Source: a virus
Lineage: Duplodnaviria; Caudoviricetes
Reading direction: 5' to 3' (one strand)
IMG/VR virus record: IMGVR_UViG_3300017655_000254
Span: 1 to 39,115 of that record
DNA length: 39,115 nucleotides
Position numbers and translations under genes: made by a program. This document shows, one piece after another, positions 1 to 39,115 of the stretch (within the stretch, counting starts at the first letter, position 1; each line of letters opens with the position of its first letter). The notes under the pieces are model-generated. The model did no database searches, was not told where the DNA came from, and worked only from the letters and a program-made list of their open reading frames with translations.

Positions 1-1134
1 GTGGAATATCGAGCCCATAAATCGAAGTTGAGAAAGTACCGCGCCTTTGTCGATTGGACCATCGGCGGGGAGCGGAAACGGAAATACTTCACGTCGCACG
101 AGACGGCAAAGGGTTGGGCCGCCGACAAGAACCGGCATGTCTTGAACGTCGGCATCAACTCCGCCGTCTTGTCGGATCGGCTCCGGGTTCAAGCGCAAGA
201 AGCCGACGTGATGCTCCAACCCTACGGGAAGAGCATCATCGACGCCGTGAAATTTGCGGTCAGCCATTGGGAGGTTGCGAAGAACTCGCAGAAGGTGAGT
301 CACGTCATTAAAAAGCTCCTTGAAGAGAAGGAGAAGATGCGGAAGCAGGGGCTCCGGGGTGGAAGCGAGCGGTATTGCATCGACTTGAAATTGCGGCTCG
401 GTCGGTTTGCGAAGACGTACGGCGGTGCGAAGATTTCTGAAATTACGAGATCCCAGATTCGCGAATGGCTCGAAGGACTCTCCGGCGGCCCAGCCAACCG
501 GAACAACTGCCAAAGGGCGTTGTCGGTCTTGTGGGAGTACGCCCGGCATCGGGATTGGTGCAAAGGCAATCCCGTCAAGGAAATCAAGAAAAGCGAGACC
601 CCGGCGTCGAAGATTGAAATCTTGACCGTGCTGCAAACGGCCAAGCTGCTCGCGGGTGCGCCCCCGCATATTGTGCCGCATCTCGCCATCGGCCTATTTT
701 GCGGATTGCGCCGGTCGGAATTGGCGAGAGTGGGGCCGACAAGCGTCAAACTTGAATCCGGCTTGGTGGAAGTGAGCGTGACGAAAACGAAGGGGGCCGC
801 CCGGCGCTTCGTCCGCATCCGGCAGAACCTCCGCGCGTGGCTCCTGGGGTGCGGGCCCGTTGTTGACCTGACGCCGAACCAGTTCCGGGAAGGGCTCGAC
901 TCCGCCATCAAAGAATCGGGAATCAAGCGGTGGCCGAACAATGCCATGCGCCATTCTTTTTGCTCCTACGCCCTTGCCCATGATCGAAATCTCAACGACT
1001 TGACCCTCGAAATGGGCCACACCAACCCGCATACGATCTTCGCGCATTACCGGGAGCTTGTGACGCCCGCTGACGCCGCGGCTTATTGGCGGCTGACTCC
1101 GGCTAGGGCCGCCGCGCTTTCGGGCCGTCCGTAG
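1..1134 (+). CDS. int: Tyrosine recombinase / phage integrase
   Basis: Catalytic motifs GLRRSEL (R), KTK (K), AMRHSF (HxxR position, here NAMR), MGH and C-terminal HY; N-terminal arm-binding-like and SAM-like regions. Confidence 0.93.
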   Translation: MEYRAHKSKLRKYRAFVDWTIGGERKRKYFTSHETAKGWAADKNRHVLNVGINSAVLSDRLRVQAQEADVMLQPYGKSIIDAVKFAVSHWEVAKNSQKVSHVIKKLLEEKEKMRKQGLRGGSERYCIDLKLRLGRFAKTYGGAKISEITRSQIREWLEGLSGGPANRNNCQRALSVLWEYARHRDWCKGNPVKEIKKSETPASKIEILTVLQTAKLLAGAPPHIVPHLAIGLFCGLRRSELARVGPTSVKLESGLVEVSVTKTKGAARRFVRIRQNLRAWLLGCGPVVDLTPNQFREGLDSAIKESGIKRWPNNAMRHSFCSYALAHDRNLNDLTLEMGHTNPHTIFAHYRELVTPADAAAYWRLTPARAAALSGRP

Positions 1135-1181
1135 ACTCACGTTTCGGCCCCGCTTTTTCTGGCATCAAAAAGACCCATTTC

Positions 1182-1230
1182 ATTCTCATTCTCACGCCCC
1201 CTAAAGGGATGCGTGTGAGAATGAGAATTT
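1182..1230. repeat. 49-bp hairpin element, copy 1 (exact inverted repeat of 15601-15649)
   Basis: ATTCTCATTCTCACGCCCCCTAAAGGGATGCGTGTGAGAATGAGAATTT is the reverse complement of 15601-15649; it has 14-bp internal arms ATTCTCATTCTCAC/GTGAGAATGAGAAT. Confidence 0.95.
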
Positions 1231-1298
1231 CATAGGGTCTTTGCAGCCGTGGCTTTGATCTTTTGGGAAACCTCGCAGAATTCCGAGGCGGTAGAATG

Positions 1299-1586
1299 TC
1301 AGTTGTTATGAACACTCTCAAAAGCTCGGAGATTGGCGAAAGCCTTGCGACCATCGGAGTTGACCTTGTGCCCATTGGTGGCACACCAGGCCGGAAAAGT
1401 TGCCGGATCAATTTCAGCACGAACAATTCGAAGGCCGTCACCCGTGAGTTTCTTGAATCCTCTTTCGGCGGCTGCAAGCCAATCGTCGTAAACTGGCGGG
1501 AGGGCTTTGCCGTCGTCCATGATTTGCCGGATTGAGTCGTAGTCTTCCCTACGATACCACGCCATTCCTACTACTTGAATTTTCAT
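1299..1586 (-). CDS. Hypothetical protein (95 aa, WY.REDY...LP..YDDWL type)
   Basis: Protein-like ORF directly downstream of 1596-1955 on the same strand; function unknown. Confidence 0.75.
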   Translation of the reverse strand: MKIQVVGMAWYRREDYDSIRQIMDDGKALPPVYDDWLAAAERGFKKLTGDGLRIVRAEIDPATFPAWCATNGHKVNSDGRKAFANLRAFESVHNN

Positions 1587-1595
1587 AGCGGGGGG

Positions 1596-1955
1596 TCACT
1601 CTTCCATTTTCCAAGAGCCATCTGGTTGCCTGACGGCTTTGTCGCCGAAATCGAGTTCCTTTCTTTTCGGACCGTGCAGCTCAAGCCATGATTTAACCTC
1701 TTGGTCGATCATCATCTTTTGCATTCTGTAGCTCTCTGGGAACATTTCCGCCATATTCGCTTTGATCTTTTTCAAAACAGCGGGAGGCACGCCGGTATCA
1801 TCTTCGTTGTTGGCGACGGCTTCGGCTTTTGCCAACAGTTTCTCAAGAGCGGCTACCCGCTTTTCGAGATCGGCGAGCCGCTTTTCCTGACTGTCGGCTA
1901 GGGCTGGCATGGAGAGTGCAGCGAGGGCGAGGGCGGCAAATAAAATCCTTTTCAT
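1596..1955 (-). CDS. Exported coiled-coil protein with a gpD-like C-terminal peptide
   Basis: Sec signal MKRILFAALALAALSMPALA (ATG at 1955), coiled coil RLADLEKRVAALEKLL, C-terminal LDFGDKAVRQPDGSWK. Confidence 0.8.
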   Translation of the reverse strand: MKRILFAALALAALSMPALADSQEKRLADLEKRVAALEKLLAKAEAVANNEDDTGVPPAVLKKIKANMAEMFPESYRMQKMMIDQEVKSWLELHGPKRKELDFGDKAVRQPDGSWKMEE

Positions 1956-2029
1956 GGTGAGCAATGCCTTTAGCGGGGATTCTCCCGTAGGTCGAGCAGG
2001 AAAAAATCGCAACGTCCCGTATTTTTTCC

Positions 2030-2058
2030 TTGTAAAAAACTAGGGCGTCCCCCATGCT
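2030..2058 (+). promoter_or_regulatory. Putative sigma70-type early promoter
   Basis: TTGTAA-17 bp-CATGCT in the AT-rich gap between the divergent transcription units. Confidence 0.45.
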
Positions 2059-2112
2059 GCTTTCAGTTCCGAGGGTAACCGATCTTTACGAAGACGCGCC
2101 AACCTCCCGAAT

Positions 2113-2301
2113 GTGACGAAGAAAAAAGCGAATCCGATGAAGGGGGGGAGAAAACCGATTCCGAAAGAAGATCGGGTGGTGCCTCTCAACCTATCGGTAA
2201 AACCAGCAACCAGAGATCGCTTCAAGGGACTGGCGAAAGAGCTAAAGCTCTCAATGCCAAAGACCTTGGAGCATTTGATGGACGAAAACGAAAAGCGGTA
2301 A
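2113..2301 (+). CDS. Small ribbon-helix-helix-like DNA-binding protein
   Basis: GRKP basic motif, beta-strand VPLNLSV, then helices RDRFKGLAKELKLSMPKTLEHLMD. Confidence 0.6.
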   Translation: MTKKKANPMKGGRKPIPKEDRVVPLNLSVKPATRDRFKGLAKELKLSMPKTLEHLMDENEKR

Positions 2302-11094: not shown

Positions 11095-12160
11095 CTGGCT
11101 CGCGCAAACCTTTCGCGGAATCCTTAAGTGTCCGGCAGGGGGCGGGAAGACCTTTATCGCGACATCTGCCATTGATCGGGTTGCGCGAGGCCACCAGCGG
11201 GCCGCCAAGGCGCGGATCACCTGGCTTGCGAACACGCGGGAGCAGGTCGAGCAAGCGGAAGAAGCTTTCTCTTTCTTCCCGGCGATCAATCAGCTTTGCC
11301 GGGTCCGCGTAGCGTGCTGGCAAGGCGGCTCAGATTGCAGCGAGGAAGACCTCGTCGTCGTCGACGAGTGTCACCATGCCGGAGCGCCGACCCTTGGCGC
11401 ACTGGTGGCGACCGCGCCGCGTGCTCGATGGGGCCTGTCTGCTACCCCGTTCGGCGGCGATCCCGAAAAGAACCTGGCGTTGATGGCGCTCTTTGATCAC
11501 CAGATGTTCGAGATTGATCGGGCGCGGATCGTCGACGGCGGCCACCTGACGAAGGCGCGGGTGCATCTCCATAGCGACACGGACCCCGGCATCGCGGAGA
11601 TCATCGAGGACGCGCTTCCGAAGCTGCTAGAAGAACGCATGAAGCGTTTCCGTCACCTGGACGAAGTCGAACAGCGCCAGCGGATCACGTGGCAACTCTG
11701 CCAGACGCACGGGATCGTTCGGAACTATGTCCGCAACCGGCGGGTAATCTCGCTCGCCAGCCAGAACGACGCCGCGCTTGTTCTTGTCGGCACGGTCGAC
11801 CACGGCGCGATGCTCGCAGAAGAGATCGAGGGCGCGGTTGTCTGTCACTCAAAGATGGGAGTCAAACGCCGCCGTGAAGCCATCGCAGCGTTCCGGGACG
11901 GCTCCCTTCGCTGCATGATCGCGACTTCCCTTGCCGACGAGGGGTTAGACGTTCCACGCGCTTCGACGCTGATCCTCGCTTGCGCCGGTCGGTCGGCGGC
12001 CAAGGTCGAGCAACGGACGGGGCGCGTGCTTCGGACCTTTGCAGGAAAAGAACACGGCATCATTCACGACTTCGTGGACCGGCAACATCCGATGCTTCAT
12101 TCACAGCACAAGAGCCGTTTAAGGCTATACAAAAAACTAGGTTACGAAATTTCGCAATGA
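11048..12160 (+). CDS. SF2 DExH helicase (ResIII-like)
   Basis: RDYQ Q-motif, PAGGGKT, DECHH, SAT, EGLDVP, QRTGRVLR; start uncertain. Confidence 0.92.
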   Translation: MNVGKTARDYQNEGIDWLAQTFRGILKCPAGGGKTFIATSAIDRVARGHQRAAKARITWLANTREQVEQAEEAFSFFPAINQLCRVRVACWQGGSDCSEEDLVVVDECHHAGAPTLGALVATAPRARWGLSATPFGGDPEKNLALMALFDHQMFEIDRARIVDGGHLTKARVHLHSDTDPGIAEIIEDALPKLLEERMKRFRHLDEVEQRQRITWQLCQTHGIVRNYVRNRRVISLASQNDAALVLVGTVDHGAMLAEEIEGAVVCHSKMGVKRRREAIAAFRDGSLRCMIATSLADEGLDVPRASTLILACAGRSAAKVEQRTGRVLRTFAGKEHGIIHDFVDRQHPMLHSQHKSRLRLYKKLGYEISQ

Positions 12161-15535: not shown

Positions 15536-15657
15536 TTCTCATTCTCATTCTCAAAAAAACAATGAGAATGAGAAGTGATAACCGTCGCCGTATCCCGTTC
15601 AAATTCTCATTCTCACACGCATCCCTTTAGGGGGCGTGAGAATGAGAATCGAACGGG
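15536..15657. repeat. TTCTCA/TGAGAA inverted hexamer cluster including hairpin copy 2; putative replication origin
   Basis: (TTCTCA)x3 at 15536-15553, A-rich spacer, (TGAGAA)x2 at 15563-15574, then the 49-bp element at 15601-15649; just downstream of the primase-helicase. The origin role is inferred. Confidence 0.8.
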
Positions 15658-15756
15658 GCGTTCCGGCAACCAGAATTCAAGCTGATCCGAGAGATTCCAC
15701 GCAACGGCTTCAACAGGCGCTTGTCAGTTGACAGATGGGGCGAATGATGGCGACAA

Positions 15757-19495: not shown

Positions 19496-21000
19496 ATTTC
19501 CTTTCGTTCTTCAAACGGGCGCAGCCCGAAAAAGGCCCGGCCAAGGAATCCCGCGACCGGAAGCGCCCCGTCAGCTTGAGAAGCCTTCTGGGCGCGGCCC
19601 GAACTGGTCGCCTTGAAAGCTCATGGGATACCAACCCGGTTACGGCTGATGCCTATATCTTCCAGCATTGGAAAACGCTTGTGGCGCGGGCGCGGAACGG
19701 GTGCGAAAGCTACGACCACGGCAGGAAGTACCTCCAACTTGTCAGGGACAACGTCGTCGGCGAAGGCTTTGTGTTGTCGTCGACCCCCCGCGACTTTGAC
19801 GGGAAGAAGGACAAGGTTGCAGAAAACGCTATCGAAAGGGCGTTCAAAAAATGGAGCCGGAAGAAGAACTTTGACTACACCGGCGCGAACTGCCGCGCCG
19901 ACTTCGAGCGCCTTGTCGCCGCTTCAATAGCCAAGGATGGCGAGGTGATTATCTTGAAGCATTACGGCAAGTCTGCCGGGCCTTGGGGCTTTAGCGTTGA
20001 GCTTATCGACCCGTTCCTTCTCGATCCCACCCATTATGAAAAGCTTCCGAACGGCAACATTGTCCGGCACGGAATCGAATTCGGCCCCGATGGAGGCCGC
20101 CCGCTCGCTTACTGGTTCATCGAGCAACAGGAATGGCAGGTAGGCTATACCTACACGAAAGAGCGGAAGAGGATCGAGGCAAAGAACGTCATTCACTGGT
20201 TCATGACGGAAATGCCGGGACAGAAACGGGGACTCCCTTGGACCCGCACCGCTCTTTGGAGGATGCGAATGGCATCCGGCTTCGAGGATGCCGCCCTTAC
20301 AAATGCGCGTGTTTCGGCTGGCAAGATGGGCTTCTTCAAGGGCGGCGACGATGACATTGAAGACTTGGAAATCGACGCGGAGCCGGGGACGTTCGAGGAC
20401 ATTGGCGACCGGGAGTTGCAGGAATGGAACCCGCAGTTTCCTAACGGGGAGACGGAACCCTTTCTTCGCGCAATGCACCGATCAATCGCTGCGAGCCTCC
20501 ATGTCAGCTATCACAATCTTTCCGGCGACCTGACCAGCGTCAACTTTTCGAGCATCCGCCAGGGGGCGCTCGACGAGCGCGGAACGTGGCGAGCCCTTCA
20601 AAACAGCATGATCGAAAACGTCGTCGTTCCGATCTTTGAAGACTGGCTTGAGTATTCGCTTTTGAAGGGGGCGATCACGCTCCCCAACGGGCGAGCCTTG
20701 CCATTTGAGAAGATCGACAAGTTTCAAGAGTGCAGCTTTACCGGCAAGCGTTGGGCGTGGATCGACCCCCGGTCGGAGGCCGCCGCCGCACAAATCTTGA
20801 TCGACCAGAAAATTCGATCCCGGTCCGAAGTCATCAGGGAACTCACCAACCGCGACCCTTCCGAAACCTGGGAAGAGATCGCCGCCGAGAACCTGGAGAT
20901 TGAAGGGCTGGGTCTGATTATCCCGCGACCAGCGGGCCAGAAGCCGGAACCCGAAGGCAAGGAAAGCAAAGATGAAAACTCCGCAGAAGATGAAGAATAA
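19492..21000 (+). CDS. Portal protein, lambda family
   Basis: NVVGEG, DGEV, PGQKRGLP, LSGDLTSVNFSSIR, WIDP. Confidence 0.95.
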   Translation: MNFLSFFKRAQPEKGPAKESRDRKRPVSLRSLLGAARTGRLESSWDTNPVTADAYIFQHWKTLVARARNGCESYDHGRKYLQLVRDNVVGEGFVLSSTPRDFDGKKDKVAENAIERAFKKWSRKKNFDYTGANCRADFERLVAASIAKDGEVIILKHYGKSAGPWGFSVELIDPFLLDPTHYEKLPNGNIVRHGIEFGPDGGRPLAYWFIEQQEWQVGYTYTKERKRIEAKNVIHWFMTEMPGQKRGLPWTRTALWRMRMASGFEDAALTNARVSAGKMGFFKGGDDDIEDLEIDAEPGTFEDIGDRELQEWNPQFPNGETEPFLRAMHRSIAASLHVSYHNLSGDLTSVNFSSIRQGALDERGTWRALQNSMIENVVVPIFEDWLEYSLLKGAITLPNGRALPFEKIDKFQECSFTGKRWAWIDPRSEAAAAQILIDQKIRSRSEVIRELTNRDPSETWEEIAAENLEIEGLGLIIPRPAGQKPEPEGKESKDENSAEDEE

Positions 21001-21015
21001 AGGAATGTCTATGCT
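20976..21015 (+). promoter_or_regulatory. Putative late promoter for the capsid gene
   Basis: AAACTCCGCAGAAG-20 bp-TATGCT, 7 nt before ATG 21023. Confidence 0.65.
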
Positions 21016-21022
21016 GGCGAAT

Positions 21023-23008
21023 ATGGCAAACGGCCCTGTTCCATTCTATCGCACGCGAGACCAGCAAGCCCCGGCAATCTTTGGTCGTCGGGATGCTACC
21101 TTCCTGCTCGACACCGTCGATGAAGAGAACCGGACGATTGAGCTTTCCTTTTCGTCCGATGCAGAGATTGAAATCTATCCGGGCTGCATCGAAATCCTGT
21201 CTCATGAAGACGGAGCTTGTGACCTTAGCCGCATGGAAGCGGGCGCAAATGCGTTGTTCAATCATGATCGGGATAAACCCATCGGCGTCGTTGAGAAGGC
21301 ATGGATCGCCTCCGCCGCCGGTGGGGGACGAAAGGGCCGCGCCTTGGTCCGCTTCGGAACAAGCAACTTCGCCGAAGAAATCTGGAAAGACGTAAAGTCG
21401 GGCGTCTTGCGCAACACGTCGGTTGGTTACCGCGTGCTGAAATACAAGCTTTTCGAAGAAAGGGAGGGCGTTGATGTCTACATCGTTACCCTTTGGCAAC
21501 CGACTGAACTTTCTATTGTCACCGTCCCGGCTGACATTTCAACCGGCGTTGGCCGAGATGATAACAACCAAGAAAAAAACATGAATCCGCGTTACGCAAA
21601 ACTCTACACTCCGCGCCAGTTTTTTGAACCCGACAAGGGCGACAATCCCCAAGGGGGTACGTCACCAAAGGGAACCGATGCCCCGCCTTCGCCGACGAAG
21701 GTGAACGTCGTGGAAGAACGGCAACAGGCCGCAACCGCTGAACGTCAGCGCGTGTCAGCCATTCTCGAAGCTTGTCGGCGTTACGAGGCACCGGAGATCG
21801 CAGAGCGCGCCATCTCCGAAGGGCTCGACATTCACGCGGTGCGGGAGTCGCTTCTTGAGCACGTGGAAAAGCGGAACGCAAACATCGTGCAGGGCTCGAA
21901 GCCCATCGGCATGAGCGAACGGGAAGTCAAAAGCTTTTCGTTCGTCAACCTGATCCGTGCGATTACCTACCCGACCGAACGGTCGTTCCAGGAAGACGCC
22001 GCCGCCGAACTCCGCGCTTGCGAGGCCGCCGCGAATCAGATGACGCACCGGGCAGCCAAGGGAATCATGGTTCCGATTGACGTCCTTTCCGCGCCGATCA
22101 GCCGGGGCGCTCGCGCCGACATCATCAGCGTCATGGAGAGCGCTGGTTACACTGGTACCGGCGGCGCGACCATCGAAACGAAACTCCTGGCGTCGAGCTT
22201 CATCGACCTGCTTCGGAATCGTTGCGTGTTCATGTCGCTTTGCACCCAGCTTTCCGGGCTTGTCGGTCAGATCGACATTCCGAAGCAGACCAGCGGCGCA
22301 AACGCTGGCTGGATCGGGGAAGACGATGAAGCGCCGGACACCGACGTTGATTTCGGTCTGGTTCAGCTTCGTCCGAAGACCGTGGCCGCGCACGCGCAGA
22401 TTACCCGGAAGATGCTCATGCAACCGGCGATCAGCGTTGAGGCGCTTGTCCGGCTCGACATCGCCCGCGCACTCGCCCAGGCAATCGACACCGCCGGTTT
22501 CTACGCCGATGGCCTGAACGACAAGCCGACCGGCTTGCTGCATACGGACGGCATCAATACCGTTCCGTTCGCAGACGACAATCCGACCTACAAGGAACTT
22601 GTCGAAATGGAGACCCGGATTGCTTCGGACAACGCCGACGTCGCGAGTATGAAGTACGTCGCAAACGCGATCTTCCGGGGCTACGCCAAGACAGAGCTCA
22701 AATTCACCGGCGTCGCGGGAACCATCTGGGAGCCTGGCAACACGGTCAACGGCTACGGTGCGGAGATCACCAACCAGGTTACCACGGGCGATATTTTCTT
22801 CGGCAACTGGGCTGACATGCTCATTGGCATGTGGGGCGGCCTCGAACTCGCCTCCGATCCCTACACGCAATCGCGCCGGGGCCGCATCCGATTGACGGCC
22901 TTTCAGGACGTCGACCTCGCAGTTCGCCGCCCTGAATCCTTCTGCTACGGCGTCAAGGATGACGAGGGCGAAGGCGGCGGTGACGAAGGAGGCGGCGGAA
23001 CCGAGTAA
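21023..23008 (+). CDS. HK97-type prohead protease fused to major capsid protein
   Basis: Protease motifs LFNHD, SVGY, ELSIVTVPAD; scaffold-like region; HK97-fold capsid motifs IPKQ, WIGE, PKTVAA, FGNW, RRPESF. Start chosen from the promoter position; the frame is open from 20972. Confidence 0.93.
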   Translation: MANGPVPFYRTRDQQAPAIFGRRDATFLLDTVDEENRTIELSFSSDAEIEIYPGCIEILSHEDGACDLSRMEAGANALFNHDRDKPIGVVEKAWIASAAGGGRKGRALVRFGTSNFAEEIWKDVKSGVLRNTSVGYRVLKYKLFEEREGVDVYIVTLWQPTELSIVTVPADISTGVGRDDNNQEKNMNPRYAKLYTPRQFFEPDKGDNPQGGTSPKGTDAPPSPTKVNVVEERQQAATAERQRVSAILEACRRYEAPEIAERAISEGLDIHAVRESLLEHVEKRNANIVQGSKPIGMSEREVKSFSFVNLIRAITYPTERSFQEDAAAELRACEAAANQMTHRAAKGIMVPIDVLSAPISRGARADIISVMESAGYTGTGGATIETKLLASSFIDLLRNRCVFMSLCTQLSGLVGQIDIPKQTSGANAGWIGEDDEAPDTDVDFGLVQLRPKTVAAHAQITRKMLMQPAISVEALVRLDIARALAQAIDTAGFYADGLNDKPTGLLHTDGINTVPFADDNPTYKELVEMETRIASDNADVASMKYVANAIFRGYAKTELKFTGVAGTIWEPGNTVNGYGAEITNQVTTGDIFFGNWADMLIGMWGGLELASDPYTQSRRGRIRLTAFQDVDLAVRRPESFCYGVKDDEGEGGGDEGGGGTE

Positions 23009-23122: not shown

Positions 23123-23314
23123 ATGTATATTCAAATTCGGATTCTGAAACCCGTCTTGCTTGGCGGTCGTCGAATCGGGGCTGGCAAGGCGGTGCGAGTG
23201 ACGAAGGCGGTTGGCCTGTCTCTTATCGCCCGCGAGATTGCCATCCCTTATGTCCCTGCGAAGCAGGGGCGGTCAAAGGCGGTGAAATCAAAAGGAGGGA
23301 GCGGTGAGGAATGA
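23123..23314 (+). CDS. Small basic head-associated hypothetical protein
   Basis: ATG 23123; typical post-capsid position; ATGA-coupled to the endolysin. Confidence 0.6.
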   Translation: MYIQIRILKPVLLGGRRIGAGKAVRVTKAVGLSLIAREIAIPYVPAKQGRSKAVKSKGGSGEE

Positions 23315-24021
23315 AAGCCAACATCAGGACCATTCAAGCCACGCTGAACGTTGCGGTCGACGGGATCGCGGGGCCGATTACCTGGGCGGCAATCCAGCAA
23401 CGGTTGTTGGGCGAGATCGCCAGCAGCACGGTTGCACTTGCCATCAAGGCCGTGCAGAAGAAAATCGGGGTCTCCGTCGATGGCATTGCCGGTCCGGTGA
23501 CGTGGGGTCGTCTTGTTGACCTGATCGCGCCTCCATCTCCGCACGCATCAGCGACCGACCGCGTCGACGATCGGTCAGAGGGGAATATCGCCACCCTTCT
23601 GCCGGAGGTTCGCCCTTACGCCAGGTCGCTCGTCAAGGAAGCCGAGAAGGTCGGGATCACGATCAAGGTGATCGGCGGAACGCGAACCTATGCTGAACAG
23701 AACGCGCTCTACGCAAAGGGGCGCACCGCCCCCGGCAGCGTCGTGACCAACGCGCGCGGCGGGTATAGCAACCACAACTTCGGAATCGCCTTTGACATCG
23801 GCGTGTTCGAGGGTGCGGCCTATATCACGAGCGGGCGTCAATATGCTGCTGTCGGAGCGCTCGGGCGAGCCATTGGCCTTGAGTGGGGCGGCGACTGGAA
23901 GTCGTTCAAAGACGAGCCGCATTTTCAGCTTCGCCCCCGCTGGGCGGCTGGCTGGTCAGAATCTGCAATGCTGGCGGAATTGCGGCGTCGAAATGAAGTG
24001 AAGCAGCCGGTCTTTTCCTGA
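23311..24021 (+). CDS. Endolysin: peptidoglycan-binding repeats plus M15 (L-Ala-D-Glu type) peptidase
   Basis: VDGIAGPITW and VDGIAGPVTW repeats; RTYAEQNALYAKGRT, SNHNFGIAFD, WGGDW, DEPHFQ. Confidence 0.92.
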   Translation: MKANIRTIQATLNVAVDGIAGPITWAAIQQRLLGEIASSTVALAIKAVQKKIGVSVDGIAGPVTWGRLVDLIAPPSPHASATDRVDDRSEGNIATLLPEVRPYARSLVKEAEKVGITIKVIGGTRTYAEQNALYAKGRTAPGSVVTNARGGYSNHNFGIAFDIGVFEGAAYITSGRQYAAVGALGRAIGLEWGGDWKSFKDEPHFQLRPRWAAGWSESAMLAELRRRNEVKQPVFS

Positions 24022-25413: not shown

Positions 25414-26165
25414 TCGCGGAACGCATCGGAGAACTTGAGCGGCGACTAGGGAACATAGTCCGGCCCGGCAAGGTGGTCGAGGCCGACTACCCGAAGGCGC
25501 GGGTTAAGGTTCAGATTGGCGCGAACGTAACCGCCTGGCTTCCTTGGATAACATCCCGCGCTGGCGGTGACCAGTCATGGCACGCGCCGGAGGTCGGTGA
25601 GCAGGTCGTCGTCATTTCTCCGGTGGGAGAGTTTTCGACGGGCTACGTCTTGCCGGGCGTCTATCAGAACGACTACCCGGCCCCGGCTGATGCGGAGACC
25701 GTCAGCCGGATCAAGTATGCTGACGGCGCGGTCATCGAGTACAACCGCGCGGATCACGTGTTAAGCGCCAATCTGACCGACGACGGAAAGGCCGTTGTCA
25801 TCACTGGCGACAATACCAGCGAACAGACAAAGGACCGCACGCTCTTGAAGTTGGGAGAATCGGCGAGCATTGAAATGACTGCCGACACAATCGCCGCAAA
25901 GCTGGGCGATGCCGCAAGCGTGGAACTGACCGAAACAGCGGTCACGGCGAAGTTGGGCGCGTCGGCAAGCGTCGACATCACTGGAAGCGCCATCACGCTA
26001 AAGCTGGGCGGCACGACCTTTGAAATCGGGGCGGGCGGGATCACGGCGAACCAGACGATCACCGTCACCGGCGGCGACGTGGTGGCAGATACGACCAGCC
26101 TTCGGACGCACGTTCACGGCGGGGTTGAATCTGGATCATCGGTTTCAGGTCCACCGGTCACCTAA
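25410..26165 (+). CDS. Baseplate spike protein (P2 gpV-like)
   Basis: TAWLPW..RAG, PEVGEQV, DGAVIEY, C-terminal HVHGGV metal-binding tip. Confidence 0.93.
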   Translation: MIAERIGELERRLGNIVRPGKVVEADYPKARVKVQIGANVTAWLPWITSRAGGDQSWHAPEVGEQVVVISPVGEFSTGYVLPGVYQNDYPAPADAETVSRIKYADGAVIEYNRADHVLSANLTDDGKAVVITGDNTSEQTKDRTLLKLGESASIEMTADTIAAKLGDAASVELTETAVTAKLGASASVDITGSAITLKLGGTTFEIGAGGITANQTITVTGGDVVADTTSLRTHVHGGVESGSSVSGPPVT

Positions 26166-37808: not shown

Positions 37809-38030
37809 ATGAAGCAAGCGCAACAATACCAGACGAAAGAGGGCGAAGCCGTTGACGCCATCTGTTACCGCTACTACGGCCAGACCAGCAACGGCGAGGT
37901 TGAAGCCACGTACGAAGCCAACAGAGAGCTTGACCTTGCCTCCTACGGCCCGACGCTTCCTGCCGGGCTCGTCATCACGTTGCCGGTCGTCGAGCCCGCG
38001 CGAAAGGACGTTATACGACTTTTTTCATGA
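37809..38030 (+). CDS. P2 gpX-like tail protein (LysM-like)
   Basis: GEAVDAICYRYYG, EAN..L, LPAGLVITLP. Confidence 0.92.
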   Translation: MKQAQQYQTKEGEAVDAICYRYYGQTSNGEVEATYEANRELDLASYGPTLPAGLVITLPVVEPARKDVIRLFS

Positions 38031-39115
38031 TCCCGGTTTATCGCATCACGTCAAAAGGGGCCAACGTCACCGACCGTTACGCCGGTCGGCTGCTTTCGTT
38101 GTCGGTCACCGACCAGACGGACGGCAACAGCGATTCGTTGCAGATCGAGCTCGAAGATACCGGTTGGCAAACGGAGTTGCCGAAGCAGGGAGAGATTTTA
38201 GAAATCGAACTCTGGTATCAGGGGCAAAAGCCGGTCAGCGTCGGCTCTTACGTCGTCGACGAGATGAGTATCGAGGGCGACCCGGACCGGATCATTATCT
38301 CCGGCAAGGCGTGTCCGTTTGAGAACGCCGAACAACTCAAAGCGATGCAAGCCAGGAAGTCGCGGAGCTTTGACGCCGTGACCATCGGCGACCTGGTCAA
38401 GACGATTGCCGGAGAGAACGGCCTTGTGGCCGCCGTAGACCCGCAGCTTGCCGCAACGGAGATCGCCCATATCGACCAGACGCGGGAGAGCGACAACAAT
38501 CTCCTTTCCCGGCTGGCGCGTCAACACGGTGCGGTTTACAAGCCGGTCTCCGGTCGGCTGGTGTTCGCGCGCGCGGGCGCTACGGAGACCGTCACCGGCA
38601 AGCAGTTGCCCGACGTCACCATTTCCCGCGGCGAGGTCGCGCCGGGCTGGAAGTTCACGCTCTCCCGCCGGATGGAGTACGAAGCGGTTAAGGTGGCGCA
38701 TCACGACGTCGACTTCGGCGATACCGTCGAGATCGTCGCCGGAGAGGGCGACAAGATTCACTTCGTTCACGGCCTAGCCCAAAACGAGCCGGAAGCCAAG
38801 GCGCAAGCGGAAGCGACCTTGAAGGACATCCAAAGGGGATCGAAGACGTTTTCGATCCAATGCGCGGGCCGGTTTGACGTGACCGCTGAACAGCGGATTA
38901 CCCTTGCCGGGTTCCATCCCCGCGCGGATGGCGTTTGGCTCGCCAAGCGGATCACTCACACTTTCCGTAAGAGCGAGGGCTTGCGGACCGTGATCGAGGG
39001 CGAATCTCTGGATGGCTCGAAAAAAACACCGTCGACCAGCGGGAAGAAATCCGGGGGCGCGAACCTCGACTTCGGCGATACAGCGGTGCGCCAACCGGAT
39101 GGATACTGGCGATGA
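38027..39115 (+). CDS. P2 gpD-like baseplate hub (late control D family)
   Basis: RLLSLSVTD, DSLQIELED, HIDQTRESD.NLLSRLA, DGVW....ITH; extra low-complexity linker and terminal peptide. Confidence 0.93.
   Translation: MIPVYRITSKGANVTDRYAGRLLSLSVTDQTDGNSDSLQIELEDTGWQTELPKQGEILEIELWYQGQKPVSVGSYVVDEMSIEGDPDRIIISGKACPFENAEQLKAMQARKSRSFDAVTIGDLVKTIAGENGLVAAVDPQLAATEIAHIDQTRESDNNLLSRLARQHGAVYKPVSGRLVFARAGATETVTGKQLPDVTISRGEVAPGWKFTLSRRMEYEAVKVAHHDVDFGDTVEIVAGEGDKIHFVHGLAQNEPEAKAQAEATLKDIQRGSKTFSIQCAGRFDVTAEQRITLAGFHPRADGVWLAKRITHTFRKSEGLRTVIEGESLDGSKKTPSTSGKKSGGANLDFGDTAVRQPDGYWR

Follow-up and report, generated by a model that had tools for sequence, protein, structure and literature searches.

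The C-terminal 16 residues of a small accessory protein, likely exported and encoded by a contractile-tailed prophage, recur with 13 identities at the C-terminus of the phage's own baseplate hub, gpD. The peptide rather than the DNA is conserved between the two genes, and we tentatively propose, with a probability of roughly 0.4, that the accessory protein is a lineage-specific entry decoy, known from this single case. The window, which is the whole 39,115-nucleotide stretch analysed here, corresponds to a complete prophage of ~39.4 kb that is inserted in a tRNA-Leu(TAA) gene and flanked on both sides by a 14-nt core. In addition to the integrase and the early region, it encodes lambda-like head genes and a contractile tail of the P2 type that closes with gpU-gpX-gpD. 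The features referred to below are the following.

1..1134, plus strand: tyrosine integrase (Pfam/PHROG annotation)
1299..1586, minus strand: 95-aa gene, function not assigned (phrog_4753, E 2.7e-25)
1596..1955, minus strand: accessory gene, 119 aa, with predicted signal peptide, predicted coiled coil, one helical repeat and the hub-like peptide
1608..1655, minus strand: accessory peptide copy LDFGDKAVRQPDGSWK, residues 101-116, 13/16 identity to the gpD end
1674..1793, minus strand: unnamed ~40-aa helical-hairpin repeat, one copy, residues 55-94 (alignment, AF2)
1797..1895, minus strand: predicted coiled-coil helix, residues 21-53 (AF2 helix 17-53; heptad a/d pattern)
1896..1955, minus strand: Sec signal peptide predicted for residues 1-20 (MKR, hydrophobic core and ALA/D recognised by eye; hydropathy 2.8)
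2113..2301, plus strand: small RHH-like regulator (RHH_10, E 1.7e-4, below cut-off)
38027..39115, plus strand: baseplate hub gpD, 362 aa (Pfam, PHROG, AF2, Foldseek)
39017..39112, plus strand: residues 331-362 of gpD, a disordered C-terminal appendage in which a G/K/S-rich linker precedes the peptide (pLDDT <50)
39065..39112, plus strand: hub peptide copy LDFGDTAVRQPDGYWR, residues 347-362, 13/16 identity to the accessory copy
39106..39113, plus strand: CTGGCGAT repeat, overlapping the last hub codons (repeat scan)

The peptide shared by the accessory protein and the hub

The accessory gene (1596-1955, minus strand) encodes 119 aa with the C-terminal end LDFGDKAVRQPDGSWKMEE, and gpD (38027-39115, plus strand) encodes 362 aa with the C-terminal end LDFGDTAVRQPDGYWR. 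The original prediction had claimed 13/16 residue identity between these ends, and this figure is exact, with 35/48 nt identical at the DNA level. Seven of the 13 identical residues are specified by different codons, and all seven codon pairs that had been listed are right. A further claim, that the two proteins are otherwise unlike, agrees with tblastn and blastp-short searches that matched 15-16 aa alone; no DNA similarity between the two genes was detected beyond the 16 codons. When the accessory peptide was compared with the six frames of the 5.07-Mb host genome, it matched itself at 16 residues, gpD at 13 and the next sequence at 8 or fewer. The composition-based probability of at least 13/16 identities is ~1e-14 per site and ~7e-7 across all site pairs of a phage proteome. 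Judged by composition, chance does not account for the peptide match.

The base differences between the copies were used to evaluate selection. Between the two copies pS is 0.80 and pN is 0.12 (Fisher p 6e-5), codon positions 1, 2 and 3 account for 2, 3 and 8 of the 13 base differences, and neutral simulations of the same 13 base changes kept at least 13/16 residues in 33/240,684 and 83/201,725 stop-free trials; these p-values are generous because the segment was picked for its identity, though they are far from neutral. Saturated synonymous sites combined with a low pN therefore argue that the peptide itself is conserved, as originally claimed, and indicate that both copies are under purifying selection, in a test inflated by this identity-based choice. 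The heptamer CTGGCGA occurs twice by the left attachment site and three times by the right, and the CTGGCGAT/CTGGCGA repeat over the last hub codons is a possible integrase arm site. With the codons of this possible site left out, 12/13 residues are kept despite 9 base changes, and the observed identity is reached in 30/880,201 trials of the corresponding 13-codon simulation. Two DNA runs of one sample revealed no variants in either peptide copy where these were covered. A low-depth contig bubble with 7 transitions lies in the gpD linker (window 38923-39043, run X1); it does not reach the peptide, and either an error or a rare strain could account for it.

The motif does not behave as a generic host tag. 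Its strict form occurs twice in the six frames of the host assembly (G000), and a profile built from three tails and run against 43,677 ORFs gave its best host match at E 0.12. The RQPDG part of the motif is a generic turn that is present in unrelated ORFs. Three public collections were scanned, from which records very near the window's genome may be missing. The viral contigs contained 0 matches to FGDxAxRQPDGxW, and half-motif scans of the same contigs gave 5 and 1 matches, none of which ends a hub or an exported protein. The metagenome contigs contained 16 motif loci, two of which (L018 and L019) represent the same prophage at 100% identity and are not independent, while the other 14 are partial or off-frame. 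None of the 14 motif loci in the genome contigs has the whole motif. Among the collections searched, the peptide duplication is private to one phage. A search for longer peptide-bearing proteins, insensitive to the degree that it missed the phage's own gpD, returned nothing at E<=10, and atlas searches gave no usable match.

The accessory protein, the hub tail and their relatives

The accessory protein fits no family above cut-off in Pfam, PHROG, NCBIfam or PADLOC and has no viral fold match at E<=1e-3; a homolog search with the whole protein returned only itself out of 93 candidates. It contains no cysteine and no lipobox, with LPAM_1 below cut-off, and the product is likely located in the envelope or periplasm, as judged from its sequence. 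Hydrophobic residues occupy 7/8 of the a/d positions in its coiled coil and 8/9 in the homolog from a sister prophage (G005). AF2 places the repeat helices at residues 58-71 and 76-94 and models the peptide as a beta-hairpin (107-109/115-117) with a pLDDT of about 68-84. The original prediction had described the peptide as displayed by the coiled coil. That description does not hold, as the two are separated by the repeat domain (residues 55-94) and by a linker of 6 residues.

The repeat follows the consensus VPxDVLxxIKxKAxxxxPxDYxxQKxxIxxQVKAYxxL, and its core P-x(4-5)-Q is present in the accessory protein. A repeat-family profile search of 1.84 billion representatives identified 589 members at E<=1e-3, and 149 proteins from the best 150 of these (148 hits or homologs plus the query) were examined. 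Among these 149, 128 end at most 5 residues past the last repeat, and only the accessory protein reaches the peptide columns. Family proteins thus normally stop after the last repeat, which makes the accessory peptide a derived add-on. A hydrophobic stretch is located at the N-terminus of 94/148 family members. One profile hit, a 4,564-aa repeat protein (P0038), was left out of the family counts as an unrelated repeat. The family (P0036-P0183) is widespread and mostly exported, and the members tested have no Pfam or NCBIfam model. Its repeats are found singly, as tandem arrays and, in fusions, downstream of ankyrin-like repeats, and by eye the fusions also include Sel1-like and other domains.

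Transcription of the accessory gene opposite to the lytic genes, another element of the original prediction, was confirmed: every replication or virion gene with a PHROG annotation lies on the plus strand, as does the integrase. The gene is the first leftward gene between the integrase and the early genes, and the same slot in sister prophages is occupied by exported or membrane accessory genes. The 95-aa gene lies directly downstream, 9 nt from stop to start, and probably shares its transcript. The RHH-like regulator diverges from the accessory gene over a 157-nt gap, and a promoter scan found no sigma-70 consensus site. What points to a lysogenic operon is gene position, and the firmness of that reading is lowered by the failure to find a separate leftward repressor ORF in window 1956-2112. 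In the sister prophages G005, G000 C34 and G246 the slot contains one or two small leftward genes that, by eye, have the look of DNA-binding regulators and have no Pfam match.

The other carrier, gpD, is a true hub, as had been assumed. It matches Pfam Phage_GPD (PF05954) at E 1.5e-15 with 57.7 bits against a cut-off of 30.1, Foldseek aligns it with the pyocin R2 hub (6U5H) and Mu gp44 (1WRU/9KI1), and the gene order TMP-gpU-gpX-gpD is that of P2-type phages. Residues 1-330 form the standard, confident hub fold of P2-type gpD, to which the window hub adds a 32-residue disordered appendage that 24/33 homologs do without. At least 20 extra C-terminal residues are present in 9/33 hub homologs. 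In a tree of 26 hubs, 8/10 members of one clade are extended by 25-38 residues, with endings that are unlike by sub-lineage, and the hub tails look like lineage-specific terminal motifs. In other hubs of this clade (loci L081, L082, L083 and L113 and protein P0004) a linker is followed by NIE[VA]VTWNPET[ND]SFE or TSFNPTTNQLQ, and two further hubs of the clade have lysine-rich tails. The gpD tail is not docked on the hub in the monomer model. Where hub and spike are fused, as in VgrG, the C-terminus of the hub continues into the spike, and therefore the gpD tail would face the cell. Between sister phages pN is 0.47 in the tail and 0.20 in the hub body. Host-facing parts often change quickly in this manner, and the flexible hub tail may by analogy resemble them. 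Its faster change could also be explained by exchange of the adjoining integration module.

The most informative relative is the prophage G005, a sister of the same genus with a hub that is 67% identical and an accessory homolog that is 39% identical and occupies the same slot. The G005 hub tail LGWGDEGVEHTDDYNA aligns in register with 6/16 identical residues, a score reached by 27/20,000 shuffles; it has no QPDGxW turn, and both hubs have Y where the accessory copy has S. The G005 accessory homolog stops at LHVAKGE, before the peptide, and no second copy of the G005 hub tail was found in the G005 genome. Co-occurrence of the two copies in relatives, which the original prediction proposed as a check, was seen in 0/1 informative relatives, as G005 has both genes and a lone hub tail. 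Of 401 order-level genomes, 12 contain the hub and 5 the repeat family, and both are present only in G000 and G005. No non-hub copy of the locus's own hub tail was found in seven other hub loci (a complete 40-kb phage, three stretches of 60 kb, another of 40 kb and two partial contigs), and in four whole genomes with hubs the own tail was likewise not copied outside hubs. A second tail copy in G947 proved to belong to another gpD and not to an accessory gene. Among the matches listed for short peptides shared within the G005 prophage and the other G000 prophage contigs, none was analogous, and related-locus scans of viral contigs returned one distant hub and three coiled-coil look-alikes.

Because the G005 hub has an in-register tail while the G005 accessory homolog is without the peptide, the hub tail is probably older than the accessory copy, and copying probably went from the hub to the accessory gene. 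In the excised circle the peptide copies are inverted and ~1.9 kb apart, with attP, the integrase and the 95-aa gene between them. The simplest origin that we infer is a rearrangement near attP in which the 3' end of the hub gene would have been duplicated and joined to the accessory gene. A recent gene conversion is unlikely, since synonymous sites are saturated. In the corresponding G005 locus (L006, C62:509-2675) the integrase is unrelated (29%), runs head-on to gpD and overlaps the gpD stop; the G005 integration site is a different tRNA, and the integration module next to the hub tail has been replaced and reversed.

Candidate functions of the copied peptide

Both copies appear to be selected, the hub enters the envelope, and the accessory protein is likely exported there; a shared envelope partner is therefore the simplest link between them. 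The slot position and the exported or membrane genes in the sister slots favour competition by the lysogen against virions of the same lineage. According to the proposed mechanism, the lysogen would express the accessory gene from its leftward slot between the integrase and the early genes, and the product would be exported to the periplasm of the diderm host with its peptide presumably folded as the predicted beta-hairpin. In T4-type phages tail contraction delivers the hub into the envelope, and by this route the tail of an incoming hub would arrive there upon contraction. The exported copy might then occupy that tail's partner in the envelope, so that phages of the same lineage would be barred from DNA entry. 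The original prediction of a decoy or of superinfection exclusion consequently stands in part: peptide-level conservation, the add-on nature of the peptide, the flexible hub tail and the lack of a generic tag are in its favour, and the co-occurrence result is against it. Against any generality of the decoy, 24/33 hubs are tail-less and no general hub-partner interaction is known for the tail. A wider proposal, which we regard as doubtful, is that temperate phages make new exclusion genes by pasting their own tail-tip docking peptide onto a generic exported scaffold. Lineage-specific hub-end peptides would then be keys for an envelope partner, the window gene would be a newborn decoy, and the G005 scaffold would be keyless.

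The same selection signal also fits a shared anchor that involves no exclusion, in which the hairpin binds a common envelope ligand such as peptidoglycan, a lipid or an outer-membrane protein. The hub would use this ligand at entry, and the accessory protein would have borrowed the hairpin to localise its repeat domain. The modularity of the repeat family, with its fusions to many domains (ankyrin and, by eye, Sel1-like), is in keeping with such borrowing, and the retention of a peptide-less homolog in G005 implies that the repeat core has a role of its own. However, a general anchor should be more widespread and need not track its own hub so closely, whereas the peptide is present in none of the other 148 family proteins and the tail profile found nothing in the host better than E 0.12. 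On balance we consider this explanation unlikely, although it deserves to be kept in mind.

A counter-defence role has also been considered, in which the exported copy would act as a sacrificial substrate that soaks up a host periplasmic sensor or protease recognising the hub tail and so shields the phage's own infection or progeny. The fast divergence of the hub tails of the sister phages would suit an arms race, and host systems acting at the DNA entry step exist, according to the accessible text of the sources consulted. However, a gene on the lysogeny side would protect rival phages too, PADLOC gave no match and no such sensor was found, and we regard this role as quite improbable. The hub tail might instead bind a neighbour within the particle, such as the spike, the end of the tape measure or another tail protein, which the exported copy would jam. 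Spackle, like Imm, is a model for such jamming of an incoming virion part. Between the sisters, identity is 68-79% for the spike, wedge and gpX against 6/16 for the tail, so a variable partner fits poorly among them; the tape measure protein, at 36% identity, is the exception. The tail is also undocked on the hub in the monomer model, and a trap for virion parts seems slightly less probable still. Finally, the peptide could be an old accident: an inverted duplication close to attP would have attached the 3' end of the hub gene to the accessory gene, where it has remained without function. This would suit the inverted copies lying ~1.9 kb apart around an integration module unlike that of G005 in orientation and sequence (integrases 29%) and the limitation to 16 codons in a single case, but it is the least probable explanation given the 2/3/8 distribution of differences by codon position, neutral simulations at 3e-5 to 4e-4 and no DNA similarity outside the 16 codons.

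If the accessory protein is an entry decoy, it can be set beside several known exclusion proteins, although by profile it fits none of the named superinfection exclusion or defence families (Imm, SieA, Sim, Cor/Llp, PADLOC). P1 SimC is exported and blocks injection, and it resembles the window protein in being small and accessory and in starting with a signal-like sequence, but it has 264 aa and is unrelated to the window protein. No peptide common to SimC and Sit or other ORFs was found in 45 kb of P1 (Sit best E 1.1). SimC is annotated for superimmunity and is non-essential, as given in the accessible parts of its sources (NC_005856; PMC10695390). The closest functional model for a decoy is T5 Llp, which in the accessible text of its report is a phage envelope protein that occupies FhuA, the host partner needed by the virion (bioRxiv 10.64898/2026.03.26.714494); in contrast to the window protein, which has no lipobox, Llp is a lipoprotein of a lytic phage. 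T4 Imm acts by binding the injected tape measure protein (bioRxiv 10.64898/2026.03.06.709160). As far as the available portion of that report goes, the likeness lies in a contractile-tailed phage being excluded at the envelope after the hub pierces the outer membrane, and the difference in that Imm binds the injected protein itself and does not rely on self-mimicry. P22 SieA acts on gp16 and gp20, and escape maps to C-terminal regions of these injected proteins (PMC10883804). The accessible text of that paper presents a prophage gene that lies apart from the lytic operons and prevents DNA entry by phages of its own kind, as proposed here; SieA differs as an inner-membrane protein acting on podophage ejection proteins, with no shared peptide reported in that text. 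Tai, by the available account, blocks tail assembly in the cytoplasm (PMC11364771).

A literature search covering titles and the beginnings of abstracts, mostly outside subscription journals, found no exported protein that mimics a virion peptide of its own phage. To our knowledge, the contacts of contractile-tail hubs past the outer membrane are largely an open question, for which an exported 16-residue hub peptide is a ready bait for the hub partner, and the question is testable with a synthetic peptide. If true, the decoy would add exclusion by self-mimicry to receptor blocking and the binding of injected proteins, and it would show how exclusion genes arise. If false, the shared peptide nevertheless points to a functional linear motif in a hub tail that would otherwise pass for junk.

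Prophage and host setting

The prophage is located on contig C20 of the host assembly G000 (5.07 Mb, 62% GC), a metagenome-type assembly, and the two Omp85 genes found there identify the host as diderm. Weak Verru_Chthon matches below cut-off suggest that the host may be a verrucomicrobium. The tRNA-Leu(TAA) integration site with its 14-nt core lies at G000 C20:13520-13572 and 52936-53022, and the phage-supplied tRNA-Leu(TAA) 3' half differs from the displaced host half in several stem bases. Other prophage pieces in the host genome are found at G000 C34:12006-12875 (minus strand), in the first 12 kb of C100 (1-12 kb) and on C113 and C131. A G000 prophage at tRNA-Lys has an early region in common with the window (72-89% nt), and its accessory slot contains a different signal-peptide protein of 289 aa.

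A strong palindrome of ~55-69 nt (DNA fold z -7.1) occurs at window 1169-1237 and, inverted, at 15594-15662. The first site lies between the convergent integrase and 95-aa gene and the second after the primase/helicase. The same palindrome is present in the co-resident prophage (G000 C34 ~11476-11577, C100 ~11984-12031). It has no Rfam match; possible roles are a terminator that works in both directions, an origin or a small mobile palindrome. Among the virion genes, an endolysin with M15 peptidase and peptidoglycan-binding domains (window 23311-24021) is placed between the capsid and neck genes, and the protease and major capsid protein are fused as one 678-aa ORF (window 20972-23008). The spike gene gpV contains three 51-nt repeats that encode 17-residue units (window 25847-26010).
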